The translations under genes were made by a program, and so were the position numbers. A DNA stretch of 64,000 nucleotides from Escherichia phage vB_ESM-pEJ01, in the sequence record OP114734.1. One strand, given 5' to 3'. Positions 5,032-45,299 of the stretch are shown here, one piece after another. The notes beneath the pieces were generated by a model that saw nothing but the letters and a program-made list of their open reading frames with translations, searched no databases and was not told where the DNA came from. Within the stretch, counting starts at the first letter, position 1; every line of letters starts with the position of its first letter.

Positions 5032-5064
5032 TTTGATTCTCCTTTGTTTCGTTTCGATGTGGGT

Positions 5065-5093
5065 ATATTACTACCACCGTTATTCAGTGTCAA
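5065..5093 (-). promoter_or_regulatory. sigma70-like early promoter (TTGACA-17-TAATAT)
   Basis: third copy of the promoter cassette. Confidence 0.5.
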
Positions 5094-5100
5094 CTACTTT

Positions 5101-5319: not shown

Positions 5320-5343
5320 ATGTTCCTCCGTTTCGATGTGCGT

Positions 5344-5372
5344 ATTATGCTATGGCAAGATCAGATTGTCAA
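5344..5372 (-). promoter_or_regulatory. sigma70-like early promoter (TTGACA-17-CATAAT)
   Basis: fourth copy of the promoter cassette. Confidence 0.5.
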
Positions 5373-5383
5373 CACCCAATAAC

Positions 5384-5409
5384 AAAAAAAGTCGCCACTA
5401 TGGGCGACT
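5384..5409 (-). terminator. rho-independent terminator after HAD-family gene
   Basis: hairpin GTCGCC-CATAGT-GGCGAC followed by TTTTTTT on the minus strand. Confidence 0.6.
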
Positions 5410-5420
5410 TTGAACAAACA

Positions 5421-5897: not shown

Positions 5898-7081
5898 AGA
5901 TATTTCCCGAATCGGTTGTAGTCATCGTCTGTTAAATCGGTATTAACCTGAGATACCAGATACATAATCTCTACTTCCTGCGCTGCATTCTGTACTTCGT
6001 CAGAGTTCAACCATTTACGCATCCACGGTAACGGATGACGACGAACACTAAACTGGCTTTTCAGTCCGGCAGCACGCATACGGGAATCTGCCAGGTATTC
6101 TACATAGGTTTTCAGAATTTCCGGCGACAGGTTAGGAATTGCCCCCATTGCGAATAAGTGATCTACCCATTCTTTTTCTTGCTCGACAACATCCAGAAAG
6201 ATTTTCGTTGCTTCGCCTTCAAGTTCTTCCGCAATCTGTTTCCACTCATCACCATCAGCCCCCGTTTGCCATTGACGAATAATGTATTGTGTGCCTTTTA
6301 AGTGAAGTTGTTCATCACGCGCAATAAATTTCATGATCTTCGCGTTACCTTCCAGTAAACCACGTTCGGCAAAGCTGAAAGTACATGCAAAGGACACATA
6401 AAAACGTATTGCTTCCAGTGCATTTACGCAGTGTGCACACAGATAAATCGAAGCCATCAGATCTCGTTTTGTATCTTCAAAAAATCTTCTTGCATCATCT
6501 AATTCTGTCTGATCGTCTCGTTCTTCCCAATAGTGGTGGAGAACTTCTTCTTCCCAATAGCGGAGATCTTCTTTTGCATTCTCATACTTACGAATCCAAT
6601 AGAGAACATCATCATAATATTTCCCGATAGATTCCGCTCGCTTCATGATAGCAGGGTTATCGATGATCTGGTCGAACTCACTAGCCGGATCAATGAAACA
6701 GTTACGCATAATGTGTGTATAGCTTCGGCTATGAATCGTTTCGCTGAATGTCCATGTTTGCAACCATGTATCGAGAGTTGGATCAGATACAATTGGACCA
6801 AATGCTGCGGACGGTGCGCGACCTTGAATAGAATCAAGTAATGTCTGATACTTCAAGTTTTCGGTAAAGAAACGCTTTTCAACGTCACCCATATTAAGAT
6901 ATTGAATGCGGTCGGTTGCAAGTGAAATCTCTTCTGGACGCCAGAAAAATGACAATTGCTTTTCGATCAGTTCTTCAAATACTTGATGACGCTGAATATC
7001 ATAGCGAGCGATACCCAACCCACTACCCAGAAACATTGGTTCGTTCATAATATCAACATGTTCGCGGTTAAATACGCTCAT
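5894..7081 (-). CDS. nrdB: ribonucleotide reductase beta subunit
   Basis: 395 aa; di-iron RNR small-subunit features; downstream of nrdA as in T4; SD GTGAGGTG. Confidence 0.9.
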   Translation of the reverse strand: MSVFNREHVDIMNEPMFLGSGLGIARYDIQRHQVFEELIEKQLSFFWRPEEISLATDRIQYLNMGDVEKRFFTENLKYQTLLDSIQGRAPSAAFGPIVSDPTLDTWLQTWTFSETIHSRSYTHIMRNCFIDPASEFDQIIDNPAIMKRAESIGKYYDDVLYWIRKYENAKEDLRYWEEEVLHHYWEERDDQTELDDARRFFEDTKRDLMASIYLCAHCVNALEAIRFYVSFACTFSFAERGLLEGNAKIMKFIARDEQLHLKGTQYIIRQWQTGADGDEWKQIAEELEGEATKIFLDVVEQEKEWVDHLFAMGAIPNLSPEILKTYVEYLADSRMRAAGLKSQFSVRRHPLPWMRKWLNSDEVQNAAQEVEIMYLVSQVNTDLTDDDYNRFGKYL

Positions 7082-7096
7082 TAATTCACCTCACTA

Positions 7097-7264
7097 TCAC
7101 TTTTTAACACAAAAGAACTTAGTATTTCTGTTTATTTCGCTATCCTGCTGCAATTCCTGCACAGCTTCAAAACAATTTTGATATGATGAAAACTCTACGC
7201 TGGTAACAGTTCCTTTATTATATACGCCTACGCTAACGGAAAGCAATAACCATAATGTAGCCAT
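7097..7264 (-). CDS. small protein with hydrophobic N-terminus (55 aa), not in ORF track
   Basis: ATG at 7264 overlaps stop of upstream paralog (TAATG); MATLWLLLSVSVGVY...; paralog of 7264..7437. Confidence 0.45.
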   Translation of the reverse strand: MATLWLLLSVSVGVYNKGTVTSVEFSSYQNCFEAVQELQQDSEINRNTKFFCVKK

Positions 7265-7437
7265 TAGTTCACCTTTTGTTTTTCAACACAGTACAGATTC
7301 ATAAAGCGTTTATTGTCTTCACGGATAATCTCGCGAGCTTTAACGCAATCCTGCTTTGTTGCAAACTCAATGCTTGACATATTTCCGTAATTATACATTG
7401 AATTGCTTATTGCAATCAATAACCATACAGTAGCCAT
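7264..7437 (-). CDS. small protein with hydrophobic N-terminus (57 aa), not in ORF track
   Basis: MATVWLLIAISNS...; shares SVEF...C...CV.K pattern with 7097..7264; TAATG coupling on both sides. Confidence 0.45.
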   Translation of the reverse strand: MATVWLLIAISNSMYNYGNMSSIEFATKQDCVKAREIIREDNKRFMNLYCVEKQKVN

Positions 7438-7634
7438 TATCCGACAACCTCAAAACATTTATCATCAGGAAGAATCGCCCATTCTACACCGTATTCATCC
7501 TCGACGTAGTAGCAAGTCCCATCATGTCGAGCATCATATTCATCACCAACAACAAAGCTATCAGCTAGTTCAAAATCTACAGCAACACATTTAATTTGGT
7601 CATAATAAAATCCTCACTTGTTTTTGATGGTTGT

Positions 7635-14088: not shown

Positions 14089-14685
14089 TTAATTGCTTGT
14101 CAATACTTTATCAATTATATCTAACAGTTTTGGCTTTCTATTTTCAAATTCTAACATCTCTTCGGGAGAAATGTCAACTACTTCTGTTTTGTTGAAAAAG
14201 TTTGGGTCTATAGCATCAGCAACAAAGTTTCTCGCAAGTGCTGCCGCTTTCTCATGAACATATATTCCCAAATATATCAACTTCTTTCTTTCGACCTGAA
14301 TATTGGCAACATATTTACCATCTCGTTTATAAAGACTAACACCGATATATTCAGACGATCGACCTTTCTGTTTACCCATATTTCTTGAGTTTTGTTGCTC
14401 GTTCGCATCTCTCAAGTTTTCAATCCGATTATCTGTTATAATTCGGTTAACATGGTCAACGTATTTTGGCATGTATCCATGATGCATAAAGAAAATTATT
14501 CTATGCTCTTTATGATGTTTACCATCGATACACACCAATCTGTATCCATGACTAGGATTAACTCCACCCGCTCTAGATCCGACTTTATGCTTTCGGTTTG
14601 TCGATATCTTGCGAATCAGCTTACCGTTATCATATTTAAAGAGTTCATGACAACGAGCATACAATTCAGGATCATATGTTTTCAC
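14089..14685 (-). mobile_element. freestanding HNH homing endonuclease with AP2-like DNA-binding domain
   Basis: 198 aa; HNH core ...KEHRIIFFMHHGYMPKYVDHVNRIITDNRIENLRDANEQQNSRN followed by YIGVSLYKRDGKYVANIQV AP2-like module; inserted between genes 32 and 59. Confidence 0.8.
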
Positions 14686-17442: not shown

Positions 17443-17628
17443 TTAAGTTCTCTCCACTCTCACAACAACATATTCGCCAAACGAGTTAGATACTTCACGA
17501 TCATACCCGTACTTCTCCATAACTCGCAGAATTGCATTGTTTAGTTCTGCGCGAAAATAATTATAATCCTTATCAGGGATTCTGTCAACTACCCATTTTG
17601 CACCATCAGACAAATCAAATTTAACCAT
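17443..17628 (-). CDS. hypothetical small protein
   Basis: 61 aa track ORF directly upstream of rnh in the same orientation. Confidence 0.35.
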   Translation of the reverse strand: MVKFDLSDGAKWVVDRIPDKDYNYFRAELNNAILRVMEKYGYDREVSNSFGEYVVVRVERT

Positions 17629-17634
17629 AATATA

Positions 17635-18216
17635 TCATCCTCTTTTTGGAAAATTTAAATAAGCATACTCGCCAACTATTTCATGTGCTGCACGGTCATA
17701 AGCCTTAGCCGCCTCAACTTCTGTCTCAAAGTATCCTAGATGTATATTCTTTCGATTGATAACAATATACGCCTTCCACGGCTTTTTCTTGCTTGGTGAT
17801 AATGATACACCTTTATATTTGCTATGGCAAGCCTTTTTCTTTGAGACGTTAAACTGATTTTGCTGTTCGGTTGCTTCTCTCATGTTTGACGGTCTATTGT
17901 TAGTTTTGTCTTGGTCTATGTGATCTATTCGTTCAACCTGAGTACCATACTCTAAAAACCAGACAACTCTATGTACAAACAGATTAAGTTTATGACCATT
18001 GTTGTAAAATGTAAAGTATAAATATCCTTCTTTATGGAGACATACCCTTACCACATCACCTTTTTTGTATATGGACCCTTCTTTTCGGAATCCAGCAGCT
18101 ACAGAATCCTTTAAATGGTATAATATTCCATCGACATGATAGAATCTACCTTTTATCGCTTTCTGTGTCTCGATATCCCAAAATTTTGTTTTTGCCACAA
18201 CAAACACCTCACACAA
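17635..18216 (-). mobile_element. freestanding HNH-AP2 homing endonuclease
   Basis: 193 aa; VVWFLEYGTQVERIDHIDQDKTNNRPSNMREATEQQN HNH core plus YKGVSLSP...WKAYI AP2-like domain; paralog of 39976..40539. Confidence 0.8.
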
Positions 18217-18222
18217 TAAATA
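18215..18222 (+). promoter_or_regulatory. T4 late-promoter-like element (AATAAATA)
   Basis: 7/8 match to TATAAATA, ~30 nt upstream of gene 34 start. Confidence 0.35.
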
Positions 18223-18250
18223 ATTTCATATTATAACAGGAGACCCAATA

Positions 18251-21200
18251 ATGGCAGATTTTTCTCAACATTTCAAGGCCACCTTTGGCTTTGACGCTGG
18301 TAATGAAAAGGTCGTCAATGTAGCATACGCAGATAAAAACACATCAACGGATGCGGTCAACGTTGAATTTTTCAATTACCATAATGGTATTACTCAGTAT
18401 GACACAACTCGCGGTTATGATCAATACGGAACTACAATCTATCAAAACCGTCCGTATTATGCAAAAGAAGATATCACAAAGCCAGCAGGTGATTTTGACC
18501 CGACTAAATGGCAAGCACTGCGCACGGACCCACGTTGGGATTATGTTGCAGCAACTTCCGGCGATACTCCTTTAAAGTCTGGTGATTATATCGCAGCGGA
18601 CTGTCAGTTTGCAAACTTGACATTCTCAATGCCTACTAATCCGGCAGAGGGAGACACTATAACAGTAAAAGATATCGGTGGCAAGTGTGGTGTTAACGAA
18701 TTATCGTTCTTGAGTACAGGACATGAGTTTTACCATAACGGTAATGTGTACAACCGAAAATGGTATTGCACTACCCCGTATGCAATGAACTATTTCATCT
18801 TTGTTCGTAATCGTTGGCATGTTTATCAGACAGGAACAGAGCCACGCGGTGTGTACGCACAGCCAGCGATTGATGCTATTCAAATGCAGAATGGTGATCA
18901 GGTATTTCGTCGTAGTTCGTTGGGTAATATTACCTTAGTGCTTCCTAAGTTTGCCAACAATGGCGACATGATCCAGACTACAGACCTTGACGGATTAACC
19001 GCAACCAACCACGTTACGGTTAAAGTTCATGAGCACGCAGAAGAACAATCAATTGGCACGTCCGGTCTAAAAGAGATTATCGGTAAGCGTAGCGGTCATG
19101 GTGTATTCATCTTTGACAAGACGGAAAACTTATGGCGTTTGTGGGATGGTGATCAGTCTGTTCGTCTTAAACCGATCATCGATGACACTCGCTTGCAACC
19201 TAATAGCTATGTTGCTGTATTTGGTGATCGTGATGTTACTCTGACGCTGCCGACCAATGTCGAGCCGGGTGATCGTATTCAAGTTTCTATGCAGTATATG
19301 AACGGAAACCAGAATTGCCGTATTATCACCGCCACAGAGGATACAAAAATCCTTATGCAGAAAAACATGGTTCAGTTTCCTAAGCGTAGCGAGTACCCAT
19401 TCAATGGGACCGATACATGGACGGGAGTATCTGAATTGTCTTTCAACGCTGCAAATGATTATGTACCTTATGTGGAGTTCTCTTATTCAGAAGGTGATGA
19501 TGGTAAGAAATACTGGTTGGTGGCACATGCTCACCCGATTGTAGAACGAGTAGATCCGACTCGTAAAGATCGTGTTGGTGTAATTGCACTGGCTACCCAA
19601 ACTGAAACGAATAAAAACCATGAAGAGAATCCTAGCGACGAAGTTGCAGTAACACCAAAAATGCTGGCTAATAAAACCGCCAACGAAACTCGACGCGGTA
19701 TTGCTCGCATTGCGACTCAAGCGGAAACGCATCAAGATACTGGTTCCAACTTCCTGGATGATGTTATCGTTACGCCTAAAAAGTTAAATGACTGTGTTGC
19801 TACCGAAGCCCGTCGTGGTGTGATGGAAATTGCAACCCAGCACGAAACCAATGAAGGTTTAGACGATACCCGCGCTATTACTCCTAAGAAATTAGAAGAA
19901 CGTCGCGCTTCCGAAGATCTCGCTGGTATTGCTGAAATTGTTCAGGCTGGCGGCAGTGCTGCCGCTCGACGTGGCGAAGCTGGTACAGGGATCTATAACA
20001 TCAATGACCATGCTAAAATTGTTACGCCAAAAAACATCAACGAAGTCAAGGCGACCGAAACTTCCCGTGGTGTTGGCTATCTGGCAACTGACGCGGAAGT
20101 GCAAGGGGCTACAGAATCAACCCCGCAAGATGCTTTACTCATCACGACTCGCACGCTAACGAAACGTACTGCTACCGAATCGCGCACTGGTATCGCTGAA
20201 ATTGCAACTCAGGAAGAAACAAACTTAGGTCAAAGTGATAACCATATCATCACGCCTAAAAAGCTGCATACTCGCCGAGCAACGGAAACTTTACACGGTT
20301 TAGCAGAAATTGCAACTCAACCGGAGTTTGACGCAGGTCGTGACGATTCTCGCATTTCTACCCCATTGAAGATTAAAACCTTCTTTGAGAATGCACAGCG
20401 TTTGAAAGTAGATCCGACTCAGGGGCTTAACCTTACTGGTGATTTGTGGCAAGGTATCATGATCAGCGGTCTGGATGCAACCGAAGACACAAAAGGTGTC
20501 GCTAAAGTTGCGACTACTCAGCTTACTGACGCTGGTCAAGATGATACTACAATCATCACGCCTAAAAAGCTGCAAGGCAAGAAGGCCACCGAAGGTAAAG
20601 AAGGCATTATCCGAGTTGGTACTCAAGCCGAAACCGTGGCTGGTATTATGGACAATGTAGCAATTTCTCCGAAGAACTTCAAATATGTTGTTCAGACAGA
20701 GGATACATGGAAAGCAACCGAAGCGCGTCGTGGCTTCTTGAAAGTTGCTACTCAGGAAAACTGTTTTGTTGGTGATAATCTGCAAGGTTCTACTCAAGAA
20801 CTAGGAAACTACCAGCATGACGGAATTGCTGTTACCCCTAAAGGATTAAACTACGCACTTGCTAATTTCTTACCTAAGATGGCAACCGCTCAGAATAGTT
20901 TGAAATTAGGTAACGTAGAGGCCGCTAAATGGGCGCGTAGAGACATTGACCAGACCATAGAGAGCAATTACACGTTTAATAAAAACGTTAACGTGAAGGG
21001 CGATTTAGAGTGCTTAAAATCAGGTTCCTTTGAAACTCTGTCTGTGACTAAGAACTCGACCGATGTTCCGAGTAATGGTCATCTGGTGTTGGGTGAGCGT
21101 GGAGTTGACGGTCACACCGGAATTACTCTGCATGGCACAACCGCATCGGAAGGCATGAAAAACTCTTGGTCTATTATCGTTGGTGGTACTGGAACAGCGC

Positions 21201-36780: not shown

Positions 36781-38889
36781 TTAAAATTTAACATTCTTAA
36801 CCAGTTTCATAAAGTCTTGTGCGCGTTTGTCATTATGCAGAATACGATACCAGTTATCGACAATATCATACAGTAACGGGCTATTCTCTTTAAACTTCGC
36901 ACAAACTGCTTTAATTCGTTCGTTTGCTACCGTGAATTTTTCATCACAAATCTTTTTAGTTTCTTCGTCCATAACCCAACGAGTACGAAGGAGTAACTTG
37001 GAAACCTCTTTATTATAATGACGACCGTACAGTCTGTCAATAAATTCTGGAACACAGCGTTCTAGTTCATCGTCATGAAACAACATAGTGATCACACCCA
37101 GATATTCGCCATACCCCAGATGATTGGTCTTAACCTTCTTAGCCAGACCAGCCAGCTTACCGCGAACAAATTCTAGCGCACATTCCAATTGTTCGTCAAC
37201 GAGATATTTTTGTGTCTCGTTTCGAGTAATAATATACTTTGTTACCCCGAAGTAGTCAAGCGCCGTGTGTAATGTATTTTCACTATGGATCGATTTACGA
37301 CTACGGCTTTCGAATGCATCACCTACGCGGAACATGTGCAAGCCTGATAACTCGCGAATCTCTGCCGCTTTCATGTGATGGCTGGTTTTATGCCAACTGT
37401 CACCAATCTTTTCCATGATATACACGTTAGGCAGCTTGGGAGTAGCTTCACGTTGTGTACGCTCGGTCTTCTCCGGTTTAACTGCTTTAGCACGCAGATC
37501 ATCGGCCTCAGACACTTTAATCACGGTCATTTCAGAATCATCATAATACTGTTTGATGTACTCGAAAGTCTCCATATGTTTTTCGTTGCGCTGACGGAAC
37601 ACAAGTACCTTTTTATTGATGCCGTATTCCTGGACCATACCGTTAAGAGTCAGTGCACGCAGTTTCGGTTTATCGGTATCATCAATAAGACACGTAATAT
37701 CTTCTTTATGCATCCATACAAAATGCGTAATGTTGTATTGACTGCTAACGAAAGCAGGGCGCAATTTACTGATTGTGTGACGAGTACGATACAGAGTATA
37801 CACCTGACCTTCTACGTCATTAGGCGAATCTTTACCCGCATTCACAAACTTATTATAGATTGCTACCGGATCATCCCACTGCCCGATCTTACCCATCTTG
37901 CTAATAATATTGCGTTGAGTCGATGAATACTCGCTCATAAATTGCGCAAGTTTACGCTCTGTTTTAATGTTGGCGATCTTCTCTTTAACCTTTTCCAACA
38001 TCATTTCATTGATTTCTGCAATGCGTTTTTCGATGTTCGCTTTAGTCTCAATTGACAAGTGAACTTCTTCACGCGATGGCATCAGGTCCAGATCACCCAA
38101 CTCAAAATTAATGTAAATGGTCTGGTGCTGGCGGTTTACAGCTTCTAACCATGTTCCGCGAACATATTCATACGGGATCGGGTACTGGATCTTACCCATG
38201 ATTGCATATACCACATAGGAATCGTTATCACGCCCATTACAAACATAATAATTATCAAAGCTAGGGAAATAATTAATTTCGATTGCATTGATATTAGGTT
38301 TGTGTTCCCCAAAATGACGCAGTACAAACTGTGCTTCTCGATGCCATGTCTGAATATCTTTCTCTTTCACCGGAATAGTGATTTTCAGACCATTGTCTTC
38401 ATAGGTCGGTTCGTCGAAAATCTGCACCATTTTAGGCATAGAGTTTTGCACAAATGCCGTAAAGCCATAAGCGCGACCATTGTAATAGTTTACGATTGTA
38501 AAGGTGTCAGTGTAGCTATAAGCAGATTTCGCACCTAAACCAAAAGATCCGATATAATCATTAGTCTGGTCTTTGGTTGATTCAAAGTAAACCGTAAACA
38601 GTTGTTCTAATTCTTTCTTAGACGGAATACCAGTACCATAATCACGCACAGAAAAATACGGTTCGATTGCAGTCGGTAAATGAATATCAAACGGACGATC
38701 TAAGGTTCCTGCTTCTTTGTGAGTGTCGGTAGCATTACATGAATACTCACGGACGCAAGCACGCTCACAATATTGATAAGTGTTCTTAGAAAGCACCATA
38801 AAAGCCTTGCTACTTGCTTTCAGAGAAAAATCAACCGCACCGCTCAAGTCACTGCCAAATACTTCCTCATTATCGATATGCATTTTCAT
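36781..38889 (-). CDS. rIIA: rIIA protein
   Basis: 702 aa; N-terminal GHKL-type ATPase-like region; T4 rIIA-like size; directly upstream of rIIB. Confidence 0.88.
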   Translation of the reverse strand: MKMHIDNEEVFGSDLSGAVDFSLKASSKAFMVLSKNTYQYCERACVREYSCNATDTHKEAGTLDRPFDIHLPTAIEPYFSVRDYGTGIPSKKELEQLFTVYFESTKDQTNDYIGSFGLGAKSAYSYTDTFTIVNYYNGRAYGFTAFVQNSMPKMVQIFDEPTYEDNGLKITIPVKEKDIQTWHREAQFVLRHFGEHKPNINAIEINYFPSFDNYYVCNGRDNDSYVVYAIMGKIQYPIPYEYVRGTWLEAVNRQHQTIYINFELGDLDLMPSREEVHLSIETKANIEKRIAEINEMMLEKVKEKIANIKTERKLAQFMSEYSSTQRNIISKMGKIGQWDDPVAIYNKFVNAGKDSPNDVEGQVYTLYRTRHTISKLRPAFVSSQYNITHFVWMHKEDITCLIDDTDKPKLRALTLNGMVQEYGINKKVLVFRQRNEKHMETFEYIKQYYDDSEMTVIKVSEADDLRAKAVKPEKTERTQREATPKLPNVYIMEKIGDSWHKTSHHMKAAEIRELSGLHMFRVGDAFESRSRKSIHSENTLHTALDYFGVTKYIITRNETQKYLVDEQLECALEFVRGKLAGLAKKVKTNHLGYGEYLGVITMLFHDDELERCVPEFIDRLYGRHYNKEVSKLLLRTRWVMDEETKKICDEKFTVANERIKAVCAKFKENSPLLYDIVDNWYRILHNDKRAQDFMKLVKNVKF

Positions 38890-38903
38890 AATATAATCCT
38901 CAC

Positions 38904-39161
38904 TTAATTAAAATCTTCTTCGTCCATCTCTGCGTAGATTACATCCCACGCCCATAAATCAATAAACGCATTATATGTCACGGTGCAATCGTTGTCAATC
39001 ACTTCTTTCGCATATTTCTTGATGTTTTCGTAGGAAACTTGCGGATCAATTTTGTGTTTACGAAGGTGTGCATATTCATACCTCAAACATTTCATAAACA
39101 GGTTCATCGATTTCTTTTCTCGATGACACTTGGCGATCAGAAAATCAAAACTTCGACTCAT
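38904..39161 (-). CDS. hypothetical protein
   Basis: 85 aa track ORF. Confidence 0.4.
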   Translation of the reverse strand: MSRSFDFLIAKCHREKKSMNLFMKCLRYEYAHLRKHKIDPQVSYENIKKYAKEVIDNDCTVTYNAFIDLWAWDVIYAEMDEEDFN

Positions 39162-39171
39162 TTTCTACTCC

Positions 39172-39366
39172 TTATACATTTTCAATCACCCATTGCAGAT
39201 GGGCTTCTGCGTCAACCAGTTCAGCGCGGCTTTTCTCTAAGCACTTGCTGTATTCTTTACGTTCCCAATCAGCAATTTCGTTTTTCAGGACTTCTTCATA
39301 GTAAGCAATTACGCCTTTCAGGTCTGAAACTTTACGGCTTGCCAGTTCGATGTAATGGTTACGCAT
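39172..39366 (-). CDS. hypothetical small protein
   Basis: 64 aa track ORF. Confidence 0.4.
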   Translation of the reverse strand: MRNHYIELASRKVSDLKGVIAYYEEVLKNEIADWERKEYSKCLEKSRAELVDAEAHLQWVIENV

Positions 39367-39535
39367 TTTGATTCTCCTTTGTTACTAGATAACGAATTTG
39401 GTCTTGCATTGCGATCAGTTCCCAGCGTGCTACTTTCATCATGGAAACCGACTCTTTGAACATAATATTAGCCTTTTCCTTATTCCCTGTCAAGTAGATT
39501 TCTGCAATTTTCACAAAATTTTTGAGTTTCTTCAT
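39359..39535 (-). CDS. possible small ORF (58 aa), not in ORF track
   Basis: ATG at 39535; stop overlaps start of 39172..39366; weak SD, so uncertain. Confidence 0.25.
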   Translation of the reverse strand: MKKLKNFVKIAEIYLTGNKEKANIMFKESVSMMKVARWELIAMQDQIRYLVTKENQNA

Positions 39536-39581
39536 TCTTAAACGGTTTCATATAAGTCAACCTTTTGTTTTCGATGGGGAC

Positions 39582-39610
39582 ATTATGATATATCCCCGAT
39601 CCAATGTCAA
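39582..39610 (-). promoter_or_regulatory. sigma70-like promoter (TTGACA-17-CATAAT) with hairpin
   Basis: hairpin GGGGATATATCATAATGTCCCC encloses the -10. Confidence 0.5.
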
Positions 39611-39617
39611 CAGATTT

Positions 39618-39953
39618 TTAATCTTTTTTCAGTGCATCCATTACTCGCTCTGCGATCAGTTCTCGTAAGCACTGATAACCATGATATTTGATGGCAATGT
39701 CACGCAGATCATTAACCAGTTCCCGTACTTCATGGTCTTTCAGATCGTCTCTGTATTTCGATTTAACCGTGTCTTTAGGTGGATTGTGGATAACCTGAAA
39801 ACCTTGTTCTGCAATCACTGCGGCTTCGCGCTGGCGTTCATGTTGTACTGTATTTTTGATCAGGTCTGCTTCCATGAACTTTGCCATACTCATCATCATG
39901 TTATTCTTTTTGCTCATTATTAAATCCTCATAAAAGAAAAGGGAGACTCCCAT
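39618..39953 (-). CDS. hypothetical protein
   Basis: 111 aa track ORF; likely starts at the internal MSKKNN. Confidence 0.4.
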   Translation of the reverse strand: MGVSLFFYEDLIMSKKNNMMMSMAKFMEADLIKNTVQHERQREAAVIAEQGFQVIHNPPKDTVKSKYRDDLKDHEVRELVNDLRDIAIKYHGYQCLRELIAERVMDALKKD

Positions 39954-39975
39954 TATAGAGAATCTCCCTTGTATG

Positions 39976-40539
39976 TCAACTAAAATTTAAAGATGCAAAC
40001 TCCCCGTGATGAATTTTTGCATATTCATCATATGCTCTAGCGGCTTCCTCCTGAGTAGCAAACGATCCTATGTATTTTCTGTATCCGTTTATCCTTATTT
40101 GTGCTTGCCACGGTCTTTTGCTAGATCCTTTGCGATGAGTAACACCATTATATATGCTCGTGCACCCGTCCATTTTCTTTTTATTGTACATGTTTTGTTG
40201 TTGTGTTGCCTCCCGTAAATTTGGTGGATTGTTGTTTTCTGGATTCCCGTCTATGTGGTCTATTACCTTAACCTGTGTTCCATATTCAAGAAACCAGACA
40301 ATTCTATGTACAAGATATGTAGATGTTCTCTTTTTAACCTTATTGTAAACATCTATTGCCAAATGACCGTAATTTAACTTTTTTGTTTTTACTTTATCAC
40401 CGACTCGGTAGAAATATCCCTCTGGTAGACCATTAAAAGACGGACTATTTGTTTTGTGATATAGAACACCTTCCGTGTGTTCAAATCTGCGTTTTAATTC
40501 CTCTTGAATTTCAGTATTCCAAAATTTCGCACTTTTCAT
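39976..40539 (-). mobile_element. freestanding HNH-AP2 homing endonuclease
   Basis: 187 aa; IVWFLEYGTQVKVIDHIDGNPENNNPPNLREATQQQN plus AP2-like YNGVTHR...WQAQIRINGY; ATG 1 nt after the gene 39 stop. Confidence 0.8.
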
Positions 40540-40540
40540 A

Positions 40541-42364
40541 TTATGACGCCATCCATGCCTTCCTCATGTCTGAATCTTCGCTATAGAGCAAATCGAATAG
40601 CTCTTTATAGTTTTCCGGTAACGTGATGATCTCCATGACAGGATCGTTGATCACGCGATGATAGTCTGATTCTGTGAGCGATGCTAAACCTTTGATATAT
40701 CGAATGTTGTAACCTTTGATATTATCTCGGTCGTTCTCGAAATCTTCTAGGTCATAATACCATCGAACATCATCACCTTTCTTTGGTTCAGCAATGATAA
40801 TAGGTGTTTTGATAAACCGGATTCGTCCATCTTCGAACAATTCAGGCCAACGTGCAAAGAAAGAGATCAGACTAGGTTTAATAGACCCGATCCCGTCGGT
40901 ATCAGCGTCTGTCATAATCGCAATATTTTTGTATTGCATAACTTCCAATGCATCAACACCAAATTGCAAGCCAGTGATCGCCATGATGTTAAAAATTTCG
41001 GCGTTATTAACGATCTTTGCCTCCGGTTGTTCCCACGTTGTAAGAGTTTTGCCTCGCAACGGGAAACCTCCATGTAAATCTTGATCGCGTACAGAGATCA
41101 GATAGTTGATCGCGGAATCACCTTCCGTCAAAAACAGGGTAGTTTCTGCGTCAGTTCCAATAAGGTTAGCTTTAACGTGTTTTGCCACCTTAGCCCGTTT
41201 CGCTGCCTTTGCTGCCTTAGTCGCTGCCGCTTTATCTGCTGCCTCTTTGCGTGCCAAGACTACAGCAATAATAGGCATGATAATGTTTTCTTTCTTCGCA
41301 ATGACTTTAGCCAGCTTTTTAAAATCAAGATCAATATGACGCTTGATATCACCAGTCGGGTTAGTCAAGCGTTCTTTTGTCTGTGAATCAAAACGAAGGT
41401 TAGGCAATTCACGAACAATAAGAATACAGGTCAATCCAGATTTAACCGCAGCTTTAGTAACATCAACCTTATATTCTTTCTTGATTCGTTTTACAATCTC
41501 TTCACAAAGATCATCTGTCACATAATCAACGTGTGTTCCCCCGTTTTTGGTAAACAGACCGTTAGCAAAGGATACTGATTTAAAACCTTCTCCCTCGACC
41601 GCCGGAACTAGGGCAAGTGAAAAGTTTTTATCTTCAATGACAAACGGATCATCATTGTATAGTTTAGCATAATCCTTGAACTTACTAACAATACGTTTAC
41701 CATTAAACTTAAACGTGATCTTAGGAAATATTACGCTCAATGATTGCAGACGATCATGAACAATATCTAAAACAGAGTTGTCCATCATATAACCTTCGAA
41801 GTGGTCGAAGTCTGGACAAAATGTAACCTTCGTTCCCTTCAATTTTGATGGTTTTGATGACCATGTGACATTTTCAGCACCGTTTGTGCATTGAACGGTC
41901 ATTTCTGTTTCGCCGTCACAGGTCACACCAGTAAACCAATCGCTAAAGAAATTTGATAACGACGACCCAACACCGTTCATCCCTTGCGTTAATCGATTGG
42001 TATCATCAAAGTTAGACCCTGCTTTTGTTCGTGTCCATGCGGCTACAGGTTGCGGAATCTGCGTACCCTCTGGGGTAGTAACCATATGTTGAGGAATACC
42101 GCGACCATTGTCTGTTACCGTAACAATATTGTTTTGGATATCGACGCTAATCACATTGGCAAATTCAAAGTTAGTGCGGATCGCCTCGTCTACAGAGTTG
42201 TCGATGATCTCATCAATGATTTTAACCAGTCCAGGAACGTATGAAATTTTTGTCCATTTACCGAACAGGAAACGTTGATGTTCTTCGTAAGTTGTTGATC
42301 CTATATACATTCCTGCACGCTTAAGGACATGTTCACGATCAGATAAAATGCGAAACTCACTCAT
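40541..42364 (-). CDS. 39: DNA topoisomerase II large (ATPase) subunit gp39, unsplit
   Basis: 607 aa; GyrB-like GHKL ATPase and TOPRIM motifs; one continuous ORF covering the region that T4 splits into genes 39 and 60. Confidence 0.88.
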   Translation of the reverse strand: MSEFRILSDREHVLKRAGMYIGSTTYEEHQRFLFGKWTKISYVPGLVKIIDEIIDNSVDEAIRTNFEFANVISVDIQNNIVTVTDNGRGIPQHMVTTPEGTQIPQPVAAWTRTKAGSNFDDTNRLTQGMNGVGSSLSNFFSDWFTGVTCDGETEMTVQCTNGAENVTWSSKPSKLKGTKVTFCPDFDHFEGYMMDNSVLDIVHDRLQSLSVIFPKITFKFNGKRIVSKFKDYAKLYNDDPFVIEDKNFSLALVPAVEGEGFKSVSFANGLFTKNGGTHVDYVTDDLCEEIVKRIKKEYKVDVTKAAVKSGLTCILIVRELPNLRFDSQTKERLTNPTGDIKRHIDLDFKKLAKVIAKKENIIMPIIAVVLARKEAADKAAATKAAKAAKRAKVAKHVKANLIGTDAETTLFLTEGDSAINYLISVRDQDLHGGFPLRGKTLTTWEQPEAKIVNNAEIFNIMAITGLQFGVDALEVMQYKNIAIMTDADTDGIGSIKPSLISFFARWPELFEDGRIRFIKTPIIIAEPKKGDDVRWYYDLEDFENDRDNIKGYNIRYIKGLASLTESDYHRVINDPVMEIITLPENYKELFDLLYSEDSDMRKAWMAS

Positions 42365-42467
42365 TATTAAACCTCTTCATAACATAACCATAACTTACTG
42401 CAACCGCCACAAAGACGGCTGCAACAATCATATTAAAAATTGAGTGATTGTCAAGTATATGACTCAT
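42357..42467 (-). CDS. possible hydrophobic micro-protein (36 aa), not in ORF track
   Basis: ATG overlaps stop of the Zn-ribbon gene (ATGA); MSHILDNHSIFNMIVAAVFVAVAVSYGYVMKRFNNE; stop overlaps gene 39 start. Confidence 0.3.
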   Translation of the reverse strand: MSHILDNHSIFNMIVAAVFVAVAVSYGYVMKRFNNE

Positions 42468-42637
42468 GACACGCGCACATTTTTATCATAGTACCCGCCA
42501 TTAATCCCGCGCGGGGCAGTTAATCCCTGTTTGCATTCTTTACCACATTCAGGGCATTCTGCCTTTTCACGCTCGGAAATTTTGCGGATTTTCTGAAATT
42601 GACCGTGTTCTTCACAAGAATAATCATATAATGGCAT
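42464..42637 (-). CDS. FmdB-like zinc-ribbon protein
   Basis: 57 aa from MPLYDYSCEEHG...ECPECG (CxxH...CxxC); start re-set to avoid overlap with dexA. Confidence 0.5.
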   Translation of the reverse strand: MPLYDYSCEEHGQFQKIRKISEREKAECPECGKECKQGLTAPRGINGGYYDKNVRVS

Positions 42638-42638
42638 A

Positions 42639-43307
42639 TTATCCCCTTTGTTTCTTAACTGAATTTGGATCTGGATTTTCTGGTAGGTCTTCCAGACCCA
42701 TAGCATAACGTTGTGCATAGATTAGCATAAGAATATCGCGAGCGCAATCATGAATTGCATCATGTGCGATAAAACCATCTAGCGTACCCATTGGTAACGG
42801 GCATTCACACATACCACGATGCATCAATGTACGCTCAATGGCGGTGCGAACATCTCGGATGTTCCAGAATCGCACAGGTTCAAGATTGAACGTCTCACGG
42901 GTATTGTGTGCACGGCGGATCATATCAACCAGTAACGGAATATCAAACGCATTACCGCGTGACCACATTACGGATTTAACCGGATCTACTCCTACAGATT
43001 CACAGAATGCGTTAAAACGCGCTAAACCTTCTTTAGTTGATACTTCCGTACCATTTGTGATTAATTGCTTTCTCATGCCTTCTGAGGCGGTATTCTTCCA
43101 CCATTCAACCACACCATGATCAAACACCCTTACACCTTTCTGGGAAGGAATATCAAATTTTACCAGAAAGGAATTGTCAACCAGTTCTTTAAATGTAGGT
43201 GGGTTGTGCGGATCTTCTTTAAATCCGATTGCCGCCATATTGATCACCGCCCCATCAGGCGGATAACCTAAACTTTCAAAGTCAATCATTAAATCCACTG
43301 GAAGCAT
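42639..43307 (-). CDS. dexA: exonuclease A (DnaQ-like 3'-5' exonuclease)
   Basis: 222 aa; colinear with remembered T4 DexA (LEPVRFWNIRDVRT, GTLDGFIAHDAIHDCARDILM, YAMGLED). Confidence 0.88.
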   Translation of the reverse strand: MLPVDLMIDFESLGYPPDGAVINMAAIGFKEDPHNPPTFKELVDNSFLVKFDIPSQKGVRVFDHGVVEWWKNTASEGMRKQLITNGTEVSTKEGLARFNAFCESVGVDPVKSVMWSRGNAFDIPLLVDMIRRAHNTRETFNLEPVRFWNIRDVRTAIERTLMHRGMCECPLPMGTLDGFIAHDAIHDCARDILMLIYAQRYAMGLEDLPENPDPNSVKKQRG

Positions 43308-43308
43308 T

Positions 43309-43554
43309 TTAAATATCCTCCGCTATATGCCGGAACAACTCCAGATCGTTTTTATCTAGAATGAAACCGCTACAATCAATAATCCCTTTACCGTAATTAT
43401 CAGTTAACAGTCGGTCCGTTGCCATGTATGCGCGTACTTTGTTGTTAAAATTAATTACATGTTGTGCATAATCACAATGAATCTTTTGACGGTTCCACGC
43501 GACAATTGATTGTAGATGTATTACATTAGCCACATTATTAATAACAACCATATC
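43309..43554 (-). CDS. hypothetical protein
   Basis: 82 aa from the internal ATG (DMVVINN...); the track start at 43614 is a GTG inside a duplicated segment. Confidence 0.4.
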   Translation of the reverse strand, partial: DMVVINNVANVIHLQSIVAWNRQKIHCDYAQHVINFNNKVRAYMATDRLLTDNYGKGIIDCSGFILDKNDLELFRHIAEDI

Positions 43555-43603
43555 AAAACCCTCGCTTAGTGGAATGTTCTGGCATTTTATTGATACATTC
43601 AGC
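43548..43603. repeat. direct repeat copy A (~56 bp) of gene-junction sequence
   Basis: near-identical to 43725..43790 (catatcaaaa[a]cctc[g/t]cttagtg[g/a]aatg...cattttattgatacat[t/g]cagc). Confidence 0.6.
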
Positions 43604-43724
43604 TTGGTAGTCACGAGATTTTTTTGACGAATTAAGAGCTACAGCCAAAAATCCTGTAACTGTTCGTTTGTCATTTTTGGCTTACACCGCGTATCTAAAC
43701 CCTTCGTTCTTCTAGCTTCATTAG

Positions 43725-43790
43725 CCATATCAAAAACCTCTCTTAGTGAAATGCTCGATCATTTTATTGATACATGCAGCCTCACTATCG
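43725..43790. repeat. direct repeat copy B
   Basis: second copy, covering the 3' end of small ORF 43730..43897. Confidence 0.6.
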
Positions 43791-43897
43791 CCGGACACGT
43801 TCCAGCCGTATAGACCCCATCTAAAGCACATGGTAACAGTTCCATTGTGACGGCTTACCGTCACATCATTAAATTCTGGGATACTTCGCATAATCAT
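43730..43897 (-). CDS. small protein (55 aa), not in ORF track
   Basis: ATG at 43897 with SD GAGGAAA; MIMRSIPEFNDVTVSRHNGTVTMCFRWGLYGWNVSGDSEAACINKMIEHFTKRGF; first gene after dda. Confidence 0.45.
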   Translation of the reverse strand: MIMRSIPEFNDVTVSRHNGTVTMCFRWGLYGWNVSGDSEAACINKMIEHFTKRGF

Positions 43898-43907
43898 AAT
43901 AATTTCC

Positions 43908-45299
43908 TCAAATATAGTCTACTCGATACCTCGCACGGGTAACACCCACATATAATAACTGCATTGCCAATTCAAAGTCAACATTGTCTGTACACATGCA
44001 AGGAGTATACAGGAACACGCGGTCTACGCTGATCCCTTGTGACTTATGAATGGTGCAAGCTGGTAATGCTTTTACATTCAAGAACATACGCTTCATCGTC
44101 CAGAATGAATCCCAATCTGGTTTAAATTTTGGATTCTCTTTCTTCATTTCGCGATATTGTCCGGCGACCGTATTCAGATAGATAGAGAAAATGTTCTTCT
44201 GACGTTGTTCTGTCAGAATGTTGATTTCTACTAAATCTGGTTTATCTGTAGTGATTCCGACTGCATCTAAACCTACTTTCTGATTTAGGATTTCTTTGTC
44301 TTCGTCATCATCGACGCTTTCCACTTTCAGAGTATATCCTAAAACTGGTTGCGGATCTACCCCCGTGCAACGTAATGTAAATTCACGCGGGATGACCTCT
44401 TTAACTCGGATCATCTCACCATTGTTAAAAATAACATTGGGAATCTTCTTCCCGCGTTCATCTCGCAGATATTCGATCAATGGTTCCTGAGTAACCAGAA
44501 TTTCATCTACAATCACTGGTTCATCGGTGTTATAAACGCGCTTACGTACAATTTCATTGAGTTTTTCGACGCTCTTGTTAGTGTAGGCCAGAATACGGTT
44601 TTCTAGAAGGTCTTCCGGCGTTTTAACGGTTTCGAAATAATGCTTCATAAACTCCGGCAGAGTTGAGCTATGGAATACACCCTCGTTGCCGCACTGCTTT
44701 TCGAATACCCATTTACCATTACGGACAGCGGTCGCCACATCAATTATTGGCGCATTAGATCGTTTAATCTCTGTAAGTTCTACATTCTGAAACCTTTCAT
44801 CGGTGAAGAAAGGAGAGATCGACGTTGCACCGCTCGGATCAACTGGTCGTAACTGGTACAGATCACCCACGGCAATAATAACAATTCGACCGTTGATACT
44901 CTTCATGAGAATATCAAATAGTTTCTTATCGACCATACTCGCTTCATCAACAATGATGATCTGAACATCATCTAGCTTAGGAGTATCTTTTTGCTCAAAT
45001 ACTTGAGTATCTTCATAGTTGGTCGGGTTTAGTCGCAGTAGTGCATGTAAAGTAAATGCTTGACGACCTACCGCTTTACTCAAAACTTTTTTAGCCTGGT
45101 GGGTAGGCGTTGCCAAAACCACACCAGTTACACCACGACGGACCATTTCCTGAACAATGAATTTCATCATTGCGGTTTTACCAGTACCCGCCGCACCACG
45201 GACAGTTGTATGCTTCTTTTGTTCAATGCGTTTCATTAGAACATCAAAAGCATGTTTTTGCCCGTCTGTTAACATATCGAAAGTTAATACTCTGCTCAT
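43908..45299 (-). CDS. dda: Dda DNA helicase (SF1)
   Basis: 463 aa; Walker A GAAGTGKT, colinear with remembered T4 Dda (FTEIKRSNAPIIDVATAVRNGKW, YVGVTRARY). Confidence 0.9.
   Translation of the reverse strand: MSRVLTFDMLTDGQKHAFDVLMKRIEQKKHTTVRGAAGTGKTAMMKFIVQEMVRRGVTGVVLATPTHQAKKVLSKAVGRQAFTLHALLRLNPTNYEDTQVFEQKDTPKLDDVQIIIVDEASMVDKKLFDILMKSINGRIVIIAVGDLYQLRPVDPSGATSISPFFTDERFQNVELTEIKRSNAPIIDVATAVRNGKWVFEKQCGNEGVFHSSTLPEFMKHYFETVKTPEDLLENRILAYTNKSVEKLNEIVRKRVYNTDEPVIVDEILVTQEPLIEYLRDERGKKIPNVIFNNGEMIRVKEVIPREFTLRCTGVDPQPVLGYTLKVESVDDDEDKEILNQKVGLDAVGITTDKPDLVEINILTEQRQKNIFSIYLNTVAGQYREMKKENPKFKPDWDSFWTMKRMFLNVKALPACTIHKSQGISVDRVFLYTPCMCTDNVDFELAMQLLYVGVTRARYRVDYI

Follow-up and report, generated by a model that had tools for sequence, protein, structure and literature searches.

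Background

In phage T4 the large subunit of the type II DNA topoisomerase is split, according to the T4 annotation, between genes 39 and 60, the latter carrying a 50-nt translational bypass. The split has been attributed to the MobA homing-endonuclease element, and the unsplit genes are considered 'parental' (Manning & Atkins; Edgell et al. 2010, PMC2988022). The MobA element, which splits gene 39, combines an HNH homing endonuclease with a 'homR' replacement region and the 50-nt bypass; homR is the element's own version of a topoisomerase segment and takes the place of the original (67-81% identity; Manning & Atkins). The boundaries of the T4 insert lie at amino acids 466-473 and D490/G491 (Manning & Atkins, bioRxiv 10.1101/2022.08.31.505936). 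Phage T2 also has an unsplit '60+39' gene, in which the T4-type topoisomerase II large subunit keeps its parental form. The free-standing endonucleases of T4 are promoter-less cassettes which abut or overlap the upstream ORF (Edgell 2010, PMC2988022).

A class of endonucleases combining HNH and AP2 domains has been described (Magnani et al. 2004, as cited in later work), and is of wider interest as the proposed ancestor of the plant AP2/ERF transcription factors. HNH-AP2 genes have been counted in the T4-related genomes of RB49 (1), JSE (2), RB43 (3) and RB16 (6) (Petrov et al. 2010), and the 'IPA-HNH' genes of phage ICP1 are related to the class. A literature search for cleavage or inheritance data on any HNH-AP2 phage endonuclease found none.

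The topoisomerase large-subunit gene

The window, that is, the whole stretch of DNA analysed, comprises 64,000 nucleotides of Escherichia phage vB_ESM-pEJ01 (OP114734.1), a Krischvirus (RB49-like) coliphage. Three features concern its topoisomerase gene:

40541..42364, minus strand: gene 39 ('60+39'), unsplit topoisomerase II large-subunit gene, 607 aa, ATG start (ORF list)
40892..40969, minus strand: codons 466-491, equivalent of the T4 MobA insertion and 50-nt bypass (gp39/gp60 alignment and published boundaries)
42427..42454, minus strand: promoter-like site upstream of gene 39 (scan; 11/12 matches, a consensus match only)

The original prediction that a single ORF of 607 aa spans both the gp39 and gp60 parts was borne out by an end-to-end alignment. 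BLASTP comparison with the T4 proteins, obtained by translating the T4 record after removal of the gene 60 bypass, matches gp39 residues 4-475 to residues 2-474 of the window ORF (57% identity) and gp60 residues 31-159 to residues 476-606 (53% identity; e-value: 4e-52), and the gp60-equivalent region is thus present. The Pfam domains occur in the order HATPase_c (36.7 bits, cut-off 26.4; e-value: 6e-9), DNA_gyraseB (62.3 bits, cut-off 27; e-value: 5e-17), Toprim (21.2 bits) and TOPRIM_C (27.9 bits), the last two scoring slightly under their cut-offs of 23.1 and 29, respectively, and correspond to GHKL ATPase, transducer and Toprim domains. PHROG 543, 'DNA topoisomerase II large subunit', covers residues 2-606 (e-value: 3.5e-252), and the Toprim motifs TEGDSA and DADTDG (residues 486-491) are found on one polypeptide. 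Judged by these matches, the gene 39 product is a T4-type (GyrB/ParE-like) topoisomerase II large subunit, equivalent to gp39 plus gp60.

The same alignment locates the T4 split point at codons 466-491, which are continuous, intact and free of added residues in the window ORF (...ALEVMQYKNIAIMTDADTDG...). Homology to T4 gp39 stops at window residue 474 and homology to gp60 begins at residue 476, while Gly46 of gp60, the bypass take-off codon, pairs with G491. The neighbouring endonuclease gene is inserted after codon 607, placing it 352-429 nt downstream of the T4 insert boundaries; the distance to the 5′ boundary (codons 466-473) is about 406-429 nt, with the insertion past the stop at 40540. 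The promoter-like site at 42427..42454 is the probable source, from its consensus match, of a transcript carrying both gene 39 and the endonuclease gene.

The equivalent gene is annotated "60+39" in Phi1, and likewise in RB49 and JSE. Window gene 39 shares 97-99% nucleotide identity with its counterparts in RB49, KFS-EC, JSE and Phi1, and the RB49, Phi1 and JSE genes have the same length (607 aa), domain order and neighbours (rIIA, small ORFs, 39, 39.2, dexA and dda); nothing notable differs beyond codons 598-606 and the insertion that follows the gene. The arrangement without a split is normal and parental, and is already public.

A free-standing HNH-AP2 endonuclease gene

39976..40539, minus strand: free-standing homing endonuclease gene, HNH plus AP2, 187 aa (ORF list, Pfam, PHROG)

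As had been noted from the sequence, an HNH-AP2 endonuclease gene begins 1 nt past the gene 39 stop codon (40543-40541), with its ATG at 40539 (...TCA TAA T ATG AAA...). It is a separate ORF lying after that stop codon and outside any intron or intein. The translated product matches HNH_3 in Pfam (51.8 bits, cut-off 24.8; e-value: 6e-14) and PHROG 99 (e-value: 5e-49), and its HNH part finds I-HmuI among PDB sequences (1u3e; e-value: 4e-5). I-HmuI is an intron-encoded nicking homing endonuclease whose HNH core aligns with the window enzyme, but which carries another C-terminal DNA-binding module. The AP2 match in Pfam falls under the cut-off (25.7 bits against 33.3; e-value: 1.4e-5); plant AP2 structures are nevertheless matched by phmmer in the PDB (7wq5, 5wx9 and 1gcc; e-values: 9e-6 to 3e-4). 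In an AF2 model of the protein (pLDDT 86), Foldseek recovers 1u3e with a probability of 1.0 and 1gcc with an rmsd of 1.6 and a target-normalised TM-score of 0.78, the AP2 part being modelled as strands 133-135, 144-150 and 153-160 followed by a helix at 163-178. The AP2 domain is confirmed by the PDB sequence matches together with the Foldseek comparison of the predicted fold, despite its sub-cut-off Pfam score. On these sequence and model comparisons the enzyme is of the HNH-AP2 class, with an N-terminal I-HmuI-like HNH nuclease and a C-terminal AP2 DNA-binding domain.

Residues D94, H95, N102, N103, N107 and N119, which include the DH...N...N residues, are invariant across the aligned homologues. 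All ten copies of the gene are intact and differ at five synonymous and four non-synonymous variable codons, none of them at the DH/N/N positions. By its residues the endonuclease looks functional, with a presumed nuclease activity.

At least two paralogues of the endonuclease are encoded in the window. The nearest paralogues are only 42-51% identical and occupy other genomic sites, namely near gene 46 (RB16 and Klebsiella phages), near genes 2 and 53, and beside gene 34 (window), the 5′ end of which has a diverged stretch. Members of the family need not adjoin the 3′ end of a gene, one paralogue (17635..18216) being located in a divergent intergenic region and another beside genes 2/53.

Cassette boundaries and expression signals

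40547..40573, minus strand: recoded gene 39 tail, codons 598-606, left end of the cassette (junction alignment)
39952..39979, minus strand: sigma-70-type promoter, TTGACA-16 nt-TATAAT, right boundary of the cassette (consensus scan 12/12, junction alignment)
39939..39970, minus strand: terminator-like 13-pair hairpin plus T-run, its loop containing the -10 box (scan)

The endonuclease gene is part of a cassette of ~594 bp (window ~40573..39980), the insertion lying precisely between the stop codon of gene 39 and a promoter/terminator that it shares with empty-site genomes. It consists, in order, of 27 nt of rewritten codons 598-606, the unchanged last codon and stop, a 1-nt spacer and a 561-nt endonuclease frame. 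The TGA stop of the endonuclease (39978-39976) falls within the TTGACA box of the resident promoter, which is common to endonuclease-less genomes and annotated as a promoter in GEC-3S. Annotations of G5211, GEC-3S, G2494 and the Makalu phages place a terminator at the hairpin, which, from its sequence, would terminate the transcript of gene 39 and the endonuclease gene. Both resident signals are left intact by the cassette, which has no promoter of its own.

Neither a Shine-Dalgarno sequence at a good distance nor significant RNA structure was found near the endonuclease start, and any mechanism for its expression is a guess. A role for the rewritten tail as an RNA hairpin controlling endonuclease translation was rejected: when segments of 61-91 nt spanning the start were folded, the z-scores (0.1 to 0.8) did not improve on those of shuffled sequences, and the RB49 allele gave no difference.

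A gene ending inside a consensus promoter and encoding a sequence-specific DNA-binding domain such as AP2 might have been co-opted by the phage, either as a weapon that degrades the genomes of competitors (marker exclusion) or as a regulator of the promoter/terminator. The presence of at least two paralogues in the window and the marker exclusion known to be caused by T-even homing endonucleases (SegG, as cited in later work) agree with such a role. We nonetheless regard co-option as highly unlikely, since the gene is patchily present among near-identical phages and its conserved catalytic HNH residues argue against a purely regulatory role. Exclusion and homing are, furthermore, two outcomes of one cut, making exclusion an added benefit and no true alternative.

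Distribution among Krischvirus genomes

All 58 Krischvirus records carry an unsplit gene 39. The endonuclease gene is found in eight of them, at the same junction every time, while the 50 records with an empty site align over a clean net gap of 558 bp. Eight GenBank records and two metagenome contigs share the arrangement at 98-100% identity, and it is thus not a chance feature. Natural carriers include JSE, kvi, W115, FL15, G37-3 and G5211, and the empty-site relatives include RB49 and Phi1 among others, all of them cultivable coliphages. Carriers and non-carriers have been obtained from the same kinds of source, namely Danish wastewater (kvi and kaaroe, respectively), Danish pig faeces (FL15 and FL37) and German manure (G37-3/G5211 and G2494). 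In phage G5211 a further endonuclease gene, EndoVII-like, lies 5 nt before the ATG of gene 39.

Between carriers, the endonuclease gene keeps a nucleotide identity of 99.1-100% while the gene 39 bodies differ by up to 10%, so that the element is spread over different backgrounds. The gene 39 body of the window is nearer to those of the endonuclease-less RB49 and KFS-EC (98.9-99.2%) than to those of the carriers G37-3 and G5211 (90%). The 10% divergence of the latter two, however, stems from a mosaic block within the ~800 nt at the 5′ end of gene 39, well away from the endonuclease, and speaks for general mosaicism as much as for homing. A single clonal background for the endonuclease was rejected, carriers being interleaved with non-carriers in flank identity. 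Searches for a donor lineage found nothing between 49% and 98.9% identity by tblastn against 50,697 phage records, and nothing between 51% and 99% identity among 5.8 billion proteins. As it is present in only 8/58 records, all with an unsplit gene, the endonuclease is a recent optional insertion into an already unsplit lineage rather than a precursor.

These counts bear on the original prediction that the arrangement represents a pre-split, or an alternative, stage of the T4 39/60 split; on such a reading the abutting endonuclease would be the kind of agent that later splits the gene. Gene 39 is indeed unsplit here, the T4 split is generally put down to the insertion of an endonuclease, and such elements evidently favour the surroundings of gene 39, as the upstream EndoVII-like gene of G5211 illustrates. 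The window enzyme, however, belongs to another family, without detectable similarity to the T4 mobA region (best tblastn e-value of 3.6 against T4 nt 1-7500, covering genes 60, 60.1, mobA and 39, where T4 mobA is itself a remnant). Its site is also another one, after the stop codon and hundreds of nucleotides from the T4 insert boundaries, and the window holds neither C-/N-terminal extension sequences nor a bypass cassette. Moreover, the 50/58 related records without the element are equally unsplit, so that the unsplit state owes the element nothing, and Manning & Atkins name no RB49-like group. A pre-split stage is accordingly very improbable, and the endonuclease arrangement is unrelated to the insertion that split the T4 gene. 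That endonuclease insertion drove the T4 split is upheld by the literature, but the window endonuclease, being of a different class and at a different site, has no bearing on it. The unsplit parental form likewise stands; the description as an alternative state holds only loosely, in that a different selfish endonuclease has colonised the gene 39 neighbourhood by a harmless intergenic route.

The rewritten tail of gene 39

The recoded tail differs at 13 nt from the RB49 allele (SDMRKAWMA versus ADQRKIWMQ in RB49), with about 65% identity over 40 nt. In an alignment of 6.3 kb from eight carriers and seven non-carriers, comparing 2 kb downstream and 3.7 kb upstream, all 15 fixed carrier/non-carrier differences fall in 40538-40573, 13 of them recoding codons 598-606, and any self-immunity determinant within the 6.3 kb must therefore be the tail or the junction. 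The differences amount to 13/30 in the tail against 20/1791 in the remaining gene 39 (p=1.5e-16). Between the unchanged D597 and final Ser codons, seven codons differ, three of them by synonymous swaps (Asp GAT>GAC, Arg CGC>AGG and Lys AAA>AAG), and the only unchanged codons are TGG and ATG, both of which lack synonyms. The change is thus one at the DNA level and not relaxed protein constraint alone.

The recoded tail accompanies 10/10 of the endonuclease copies examined and occurs in none of the 50 endonuclease-less records. Within the phage collection the rewritten tail and junction (52 nt) match the eight carrier records only, and an exact-pattern scan of IMG/VR for the rewritten tail gave no match; a conserved-flank scan found only two contigs, both with an empty site. 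This strictly linked patch separates carriers from empty-site genomes; the enzyme's target may lie there, and on its sequence the recoded tail is a candidate target-immunity patch.

The tail is also hypervariable in endonuclease-less phages, at least five alleles (A-E, including carrier allele B) being distinguishable. Allele A is that of RB49, B that of JSE and the window, C that of JEP8, D that of Makalu_002 and E that of ECD7. Of the 30 tail positions 16 segregate (16/30), compared with 49/447 in the stretch directly before the tail (p=8e-8); the corresponding values of nucleotide diversity (pi) are 0.22 and 0.03. Allele E looks recombinant, its left half being that of D and its right half that of A. 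Long co-conversion tracts common to the carriers were not found, polymorphisms shared with non-carriers starting within 60-70 nt upstream of the patch, and position 40580 is already mixed between carriers and non-carriers.

Proposed homing at the gene 39 stop codon

We consider it probable that the locus comprises an ordinary unsplit gene followed by a free-standing HNH-AP2 homing cassette with a protective recoded tail. The sequences establish the two ORFs, their domains, the presence or absence of the insertion at one exact site, where the cassette begins and ends, and that the tail is linked to it exclusively; nuclease activity, the target position, a role of the tail in immunity and translational coupling are inferred. 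The cassette would probably share a transcript with gene 39 and be translated probably at a low level, with ribosomes ending at the gene 39 UAA and restarting at the AUG 1 nt further on. In a mixed infection the AP2 domain may direct the enzyme to the endonuclease-less allele near the stop codon of gene 39, upon which the I-HmuI-like HNH domain would nick or cut that allele. Repair by recombination, with the carrier genome as template, would then bring in the cassette ('intronless homing'). Carriers would be spared by their own enzyme, since the rewritten tail and the insertion would remove its recognition site. The layout fits that of the T4 free-standing endonucleases, which are promoter-less cassettes at the end of an upstream ORF.

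Several observations on the tail and its carriers run the other way. The tail lies 0-33 nt from the insertion, and proximity alone gives complete linkage whatever its function. It varies without the endonuclease too, and allele B may have been that of the first-invaded genome or a donor flank. Free-standing endonucleases can cut far from their own gene. Carriers make up ~14% of the records though they co-circulate with empty-site phages, which fits weak or no drive. In the case of MobA, polymorphisms near the nick site did not suffice to block nicking and the bypass insert was needed (Manning & Atkins), so that a recoded patch is not automatically protective.

These points allow a second reading, in which the gene is a homing gene but the tail is a passenger, either natural variation or donor flank, and the target lies elsewhere or the enzyme is inactive. 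Consistent with it are the several alleles in endonuclease-less phages, including the recombinant-looking E, the adjacency of patch and insertion, from which linkage is expected anyway, the low carrier frequency and the continued nicking by MobA in the face of polymorphisms alone. Against it, no other fixed differences able to give self-immunity exist within the 6.3 kb, and allele B without the endonuclease is absent from the 50 records and IMG/VR and has no other phage-collection match. The synonymous sites of the patch are, moreover, saturated against flanks that are about 99% identical, and the endonuclease gene is intact in all ten copies. A passenger tail is a possibility to which we give clearly less credence than to the homing cassette with a protective tail.

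Building on the homing cassette, we tentatively put forward, as a rather doubtful extension, that the last nine codons of gene 39 are a phage/endonuclease battleground, with the tail as an immunity module and alleles C, D and E as escape variants or scars. At codons 600-601 the carriers have ATGAGG, where empty-site alleles have CAGCGC, CGCAGA or CCGCCG; were this extension true, the AP2 domain would read a GC-rich core at these codons, the scars of C, D and E would come from repeated invasion and loss, and the tail would be the stop-codon-proximal counterpart of the T4 MobA replacement segment and bypass.

The locus has little bearing on the question of the T4 split, the unsplit form being well known and the endonuclease irrelevant to it. 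Carriers, empty-site relatives, the 27-nt patch and the natural alleles instead provide a ready system for HNH-AP2 recognition and for self-protection by recoding of a gene terminus, and such a measurement of recognition by an HNH-AP2 phage endonuclease would probably be the first of its kind.

Comparison with known homing elements

Like the T4 MobA element, the window element is a selfish HNH-superfamily endonuclease at the same gene, promoter-less and with ORFs that abut or overlap. Both carry a diverged topoisomerase stretch (homR at 67-81% identity and the window tail at about 65% over 40 nt), and by analogy the recoded tail may loosely parallel the replacement segment of MobA. The MobA element, however, lies inside the Toprim domain at codons 466-491, whereas the window element follows the stop codon and has an AP2 module; gene splitting, extension peptides and a bypass are features of the former, and the latter has none of these. 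One of the two HNH-AP2 genes of JSE is presumably the gene 39-adjacent element.

Likenesses are also seen with MobE, located between nrdA and nrdB, and SegG, located beside gene 32, which are intergenic and adjoin a conserved essential gene, as does the window element. All are optional among close relatives, apparently rely on the transcript of the host gene, and are expected to cut the endonuclease-less allele and to spread by repair with co-conversion (Edgell 2010). The MobE and Seg enzymes have measured cleavage sites and high-frequency inheritance, both of which are only predicted for the window element; their cut sites can lie hundreds of bp from the insertion, in contrast to the only carrier-specific differences of the window element in the 6.3 kb compared, which fall within 33 nt of it. 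The element is of a known kind, a free-standing homing endonuclease, in an ordinary arrangement already present in public genomes.

Gene 39 is undivided and corresponds to both T4 genes

A search of the phage collection with the 3.3 kb around gene 39 (topoisomerase II large subunit) and the adjoining endonuclease gene matched 58 records at 90-99% identity, all of them Krischvirus (RB49-like T4-type coliphages). The closest are kvi, LF73P4 and JSE (98.4-98.7% identity). The T4-type early-region order is kept, all on the minus strand: rIIA, four small ORFs, the endonuclease gene, gene 39, 39.2, dexA and dda. The principal features are:

36781..38889, minus strand: rIIA
39976..40539, minus strand: endonuclease gene with HNH_3 and AP2 domains (ORF, Pfam)
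40541..42364, minus strand: gene 39, topoisomerase II large subunit, 607 aa (ORF list, Pfam, PHROG 543)

Residues 77-140 of rIIA show a weak match to HATPase_c_3 (GHKL ATPase family; E=0.0036, under the Pfam cut-off), a superfamily that also includes the ATPase domain of the topoisomerase subunit encoded nearby.

The gene 39 product carries, in sequence, the Pfam domains HATPase_c, DNA_gyraseB, Toprim and TOPRIM_C, and PHROG 543 (DNA topoisomerase II large subunit) spans residues 2-606 (E=3.5e-252). T4 gp39 and gp60 were translated from the T4 record, with gene 60 joined over its annotated 50-nt bypass, and aligned to this protein. Residues 4-475 of gp39 align to residues 2-474 (57% identity) and residues 31-159 of gp60 to residues 476-606 (53% identity), and thus the ORF covers both T4 genes unbroken. 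This bears out the original prediction of a single 607-aa ORF for both parts, the gp60-equivalent region being present. The alignment holds no counterpart for the final 41 residues of gp39 or the first 30 of gp60, which are extension peptides encoded by the T4 insert (Manning & Atkins). Residues 486-491 form the Toprim motif DADTDG. With the 5′ end of the T4 insert at amino acids 466-473 (Manning & Atkins), the insert boundaries that define the T4 split point map to 40969-40892. The endonuclease gene, which as predicted starts 1 nt past the gene 39 stop (...TCA TAA T ATG...), is inserted at 40540, outside the gene 39 reading frame, 352 nt past the 3′ boundary and about 406-429 nt past the 5′ boundary. 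Phi1 carries the annotation '60+39' for this gene, whose unsplit form is the documented parental state.

The adjoining gene encodes an HNH-AP2 endonuclease

The N-terminal half of the endonuclease matches the nicking homing endonuclease I-HmuI by sequence (PDB 1u3e, E=4e-5), while the C-terminal 60 residues match plant AP2/ERF domains (E=9e-6 to 3e-4). An AlphaFold model from a nine-sequence input (mean pLDDT 86) retrieved I-HmuI in Foldseek at a probability of 1.0, as well as AP2 domains (e.g. 1gcc, rmsd 1.6, target-normalised TM-score 0.78), and DH...N...N residues are unvarying across homologues. The protein belongs to the HNH-AP2 class, of which one member was counted in RB49 and two in JSE in a 2010 survey of T4-related genomes (Petrov et al. 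2010, PMC2993671); EpJSE_00005, at the same site in JSE, is 98.9% identical. In W115, FL15 and G5211 the GenBank annotation of the gene is HNH or homing endonuclease. An unsplit gene with an adjacent endonuclease is known already, both in kind and in instance. Identity with MobA, whose T4 insertion with the 50-nt bypass is held to have split gene 39/60, was ruled out, as tblastn against the T4 interval with 60.1 and the mobA remnant gave no detectable similarity (best E-value 3.6).

The endonuclease gene is optional and always occupies one site

The endonuclease gene is present in 8/58 Krischvirus records (seven phages: JSE, kvi, LF73P4, W115, FL15, G37-3 and G5211), always with the junction at the identical position, and the site is empty in the other 50. 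Two metagenome contigs hold the gene in unchanged context; no more copies were found in IMG/VR, and phage-collection and protein searches found no donor lineage. The empty-site junction reads TCATAA CAC TTGACATAC and the carrier junction TCATAA T ATG...TTTAG TTGACATAC. As TTGACATAC is common to both, the endonuclease TGA stop comes from the TTGACA box of the resident promoter. Scans of the surroundings gave:

39979-39952, minus strand: promoter, perfect 12/12 consensus
39970-39939, minus strand: terminator-like hairpin, 13 pairs, overlapping the promoter
42454-42427, minus strand: nearest promoter-like site upstream of the cassette on its strand, ahead of gene 39

Both promoter and terminator are annotated in several related records. 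Within 39939-39979 (minus strand) the promoter (TTGACA, 16 nt, TATAAT) is interleaved with the hairpin, the -10 box lying inside its loop, and this compact module is kept in all Krischvirus genomes examined. The consensus scan found no promoter-like site inside the cassette, and no significant RNA structure was found at the endonuclease start.

The original prediction also proposed that this genome shows the pre-split or an alternative state; endonuclease family, insertion site and distribution essentially exclude the pre-split reading.

Carriers share a rewritten gene 39 tail on different backgrounds

Positions 38000-44300 were aligned with 15 related loci, giving 8 carriers (this phage included) and 8 non-carriers. 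Leaving out JEP8, which has a tail allele of its own, all 15 positions fixed between the two groups fall in 40538-40573, and 13 of them in gene 39 codons 598-606. Against RB49, the last coding nucleotides differ at 13/30 positions vs 20/1791 elsewhere in gene 39 (Fisher p=1.5e-16). The protein tail changes from EDADQRKIWMQS to EDSDMRKAWMAS, retaining the residues in common with T4 (D, RK, WM), and three swaps are synonymous (GAT>GAC, CGC>AGG, AAA>AAG). Between the unchanged D597 and final Ser codons only TGG and ATG, codons without synonyms, are unaltered. The carrier tail accompanies 10/10 endonuclease copies examined and 0/50 empty-site records, and was not found elsewhere in the phage collection or IMG/VR. 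Judged from these alignments, the cassette includes the rewritten gene 39 end.

Carriers are 99.1-100% identical to one another in the endonuclease gene and 89-99% in the gene 39 body. The body in this phage is 98.9-99.2% identical to empty-site RB49 and KFS-EC vs 90% to carriers G37-3 and G5211. A mosaic block covering the 5′ ~800 nt of the gene is responsible for this 10% divergence, and it shows mosaicism in general in addition to possible homing. Polymorphisms common with non-carriers reappear within 60-70 nt upstream of the rewritten patch, and no long co-conversion tract common to carriers is left in the 6.3-kb alignment.

The 5′ block (~42300-41500) separates a type shared with RB49 from a G37-3/G5211/JEP8 type by 10-38 differences/100 nt, vs ~1% in the 3′ half. 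It adjoins the site of an additional gene in G5211 (4374-5102 of that record, equivalent to ~42365-42380) for a 242-aa EndoVII/HNH-like endonuclease (PHROG 2914 at 1.5e-20), and could be flank DNA swapped together with that element. The stop codon of this G5211 gene precedes the gene 39 ATG by 5 nt, in place of the usual ribosome-binding region, so gene 39 is flanked there by two different endonuclease genes; GenBank begins gene 39 of G5211 eighteen codons late, the complete MSEFLLLDDRAH... start being intact. Another mosaic block with sharp limits spans 42465-43900 (39.2, dexA and small ORFs upstream of gene 39): there KFS-EC and G2494 share 98.4% identity, but only ~87% with the remaining Krischvirus genomes.

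The tail is also hypervariable in empty-site genomes

Besides the carrier version (allele B), empty-site genomes hold at least four further tail alleles:

Allele A: RB49 and most others
Allele C: JEP8, EDSDRRKAWMQS
Allele D: Makalu phages and SSG23, EDSDRRKEWMCS, 1-2 additional nt past the stop codon
Allele E: FL37, ECD7 and Whisky, EDSDRRKIWMQS, left resembling D and right resembling A

Among 14 empty-site genomes, 16/30 of the last coding positions are polymorphic vs 49/447 upstream (p=8e-8), and nucleotide diversity is 0.22 in the tail vs 0.03 upstream. Relaxed protein constraint cannot account for this pattern, e.g. arginine 601 is encoded by five different codons, and the hypervariability thus reflects diversity brought in from elsewhere or else selection acting on the DNA itself. 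The carrier tail may be a passenger, since the tail varies naturally and its linkage to the endonuclease across 0-33 nt is expected anyway.

Other endonuclease genes

Two further ORFs resemble the gene 39-adjacent endonuclease:

17635..18216 (flanks 17443..18400), minus strand: second HNH-AP2 endonuclease gene
14089..14685, minus strand: third ORF, partial HNH match

The second protein is 46.7% identical to the first. Its gene occupies a divergent intergenic region bordered on one side by a small ORF located upstream of rnh, and on the other by gene 34, for the proximal subunit of the long tail fibre. The second gene is also optional, occurring in 8/58 Krischvirus records, a set unlike the gene 39-adjacent carriers (FL15, PTE-Eco09, KFS-EC, ELT4, G37-3, PHB13 and FL20). 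About 100 nt from it, within gene 34 near the 5′ end of the coding sequence (~18345-18375), a ~27-nt stretch is strongly unlike RB49 and kvi. In the third ORF, 14233..14505 matches residues 78-169 of the gene 39-adjacent endonuclease (35.8% identity), and this ORF may be either a further endonuclease gene or what is left of one.

Proposed mechanism and comparison with known elements

The cassette is present and optional; for every later step we infer the following course. A free-standing HNH-AP2 homing endonuclease cassette would be co-transcribed with gene 39, its endonuclease probably being translated by termination-reinitiation at UAAUAUG. During mixed infection the predicted enzyme would cut or nick the allele that lacks the insertion, close to the gene 39 stop codon, and recombinational repair would then copy the cassette in. 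The rewritten tail, together with the insertion itself, would destroy the target in carriers. As a carrier must resist its own enzyme, and the only carrier-specific differences in 6.3 kb are the tail and junction, a candidate target is indirectly placed near the stop codon. The enzyme may also be weakly active or inactive, a reading favoured by a carrier frequency of only about 14%.

We found no published description of the cassette limits, the strictly linked rewritten tail or the multi-allelic tail, all of which are consistent with standard homing-endonuclease biology. The layout here matches the promoter-less cassettes that Edgell et al. (2010) reported for many free-standing endonucleases of T4. 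The MobA element is loosely comparable, as it likewise swaps part of the gene for its own copy (67-81% identity); there, polymorphisms alone did not stop nicking and the bypass insert was needed (Manning & Atkins). However, the T4 MobA insertion is at codons ~466-491, whereas the present cassette lies after the gene 39 stop.
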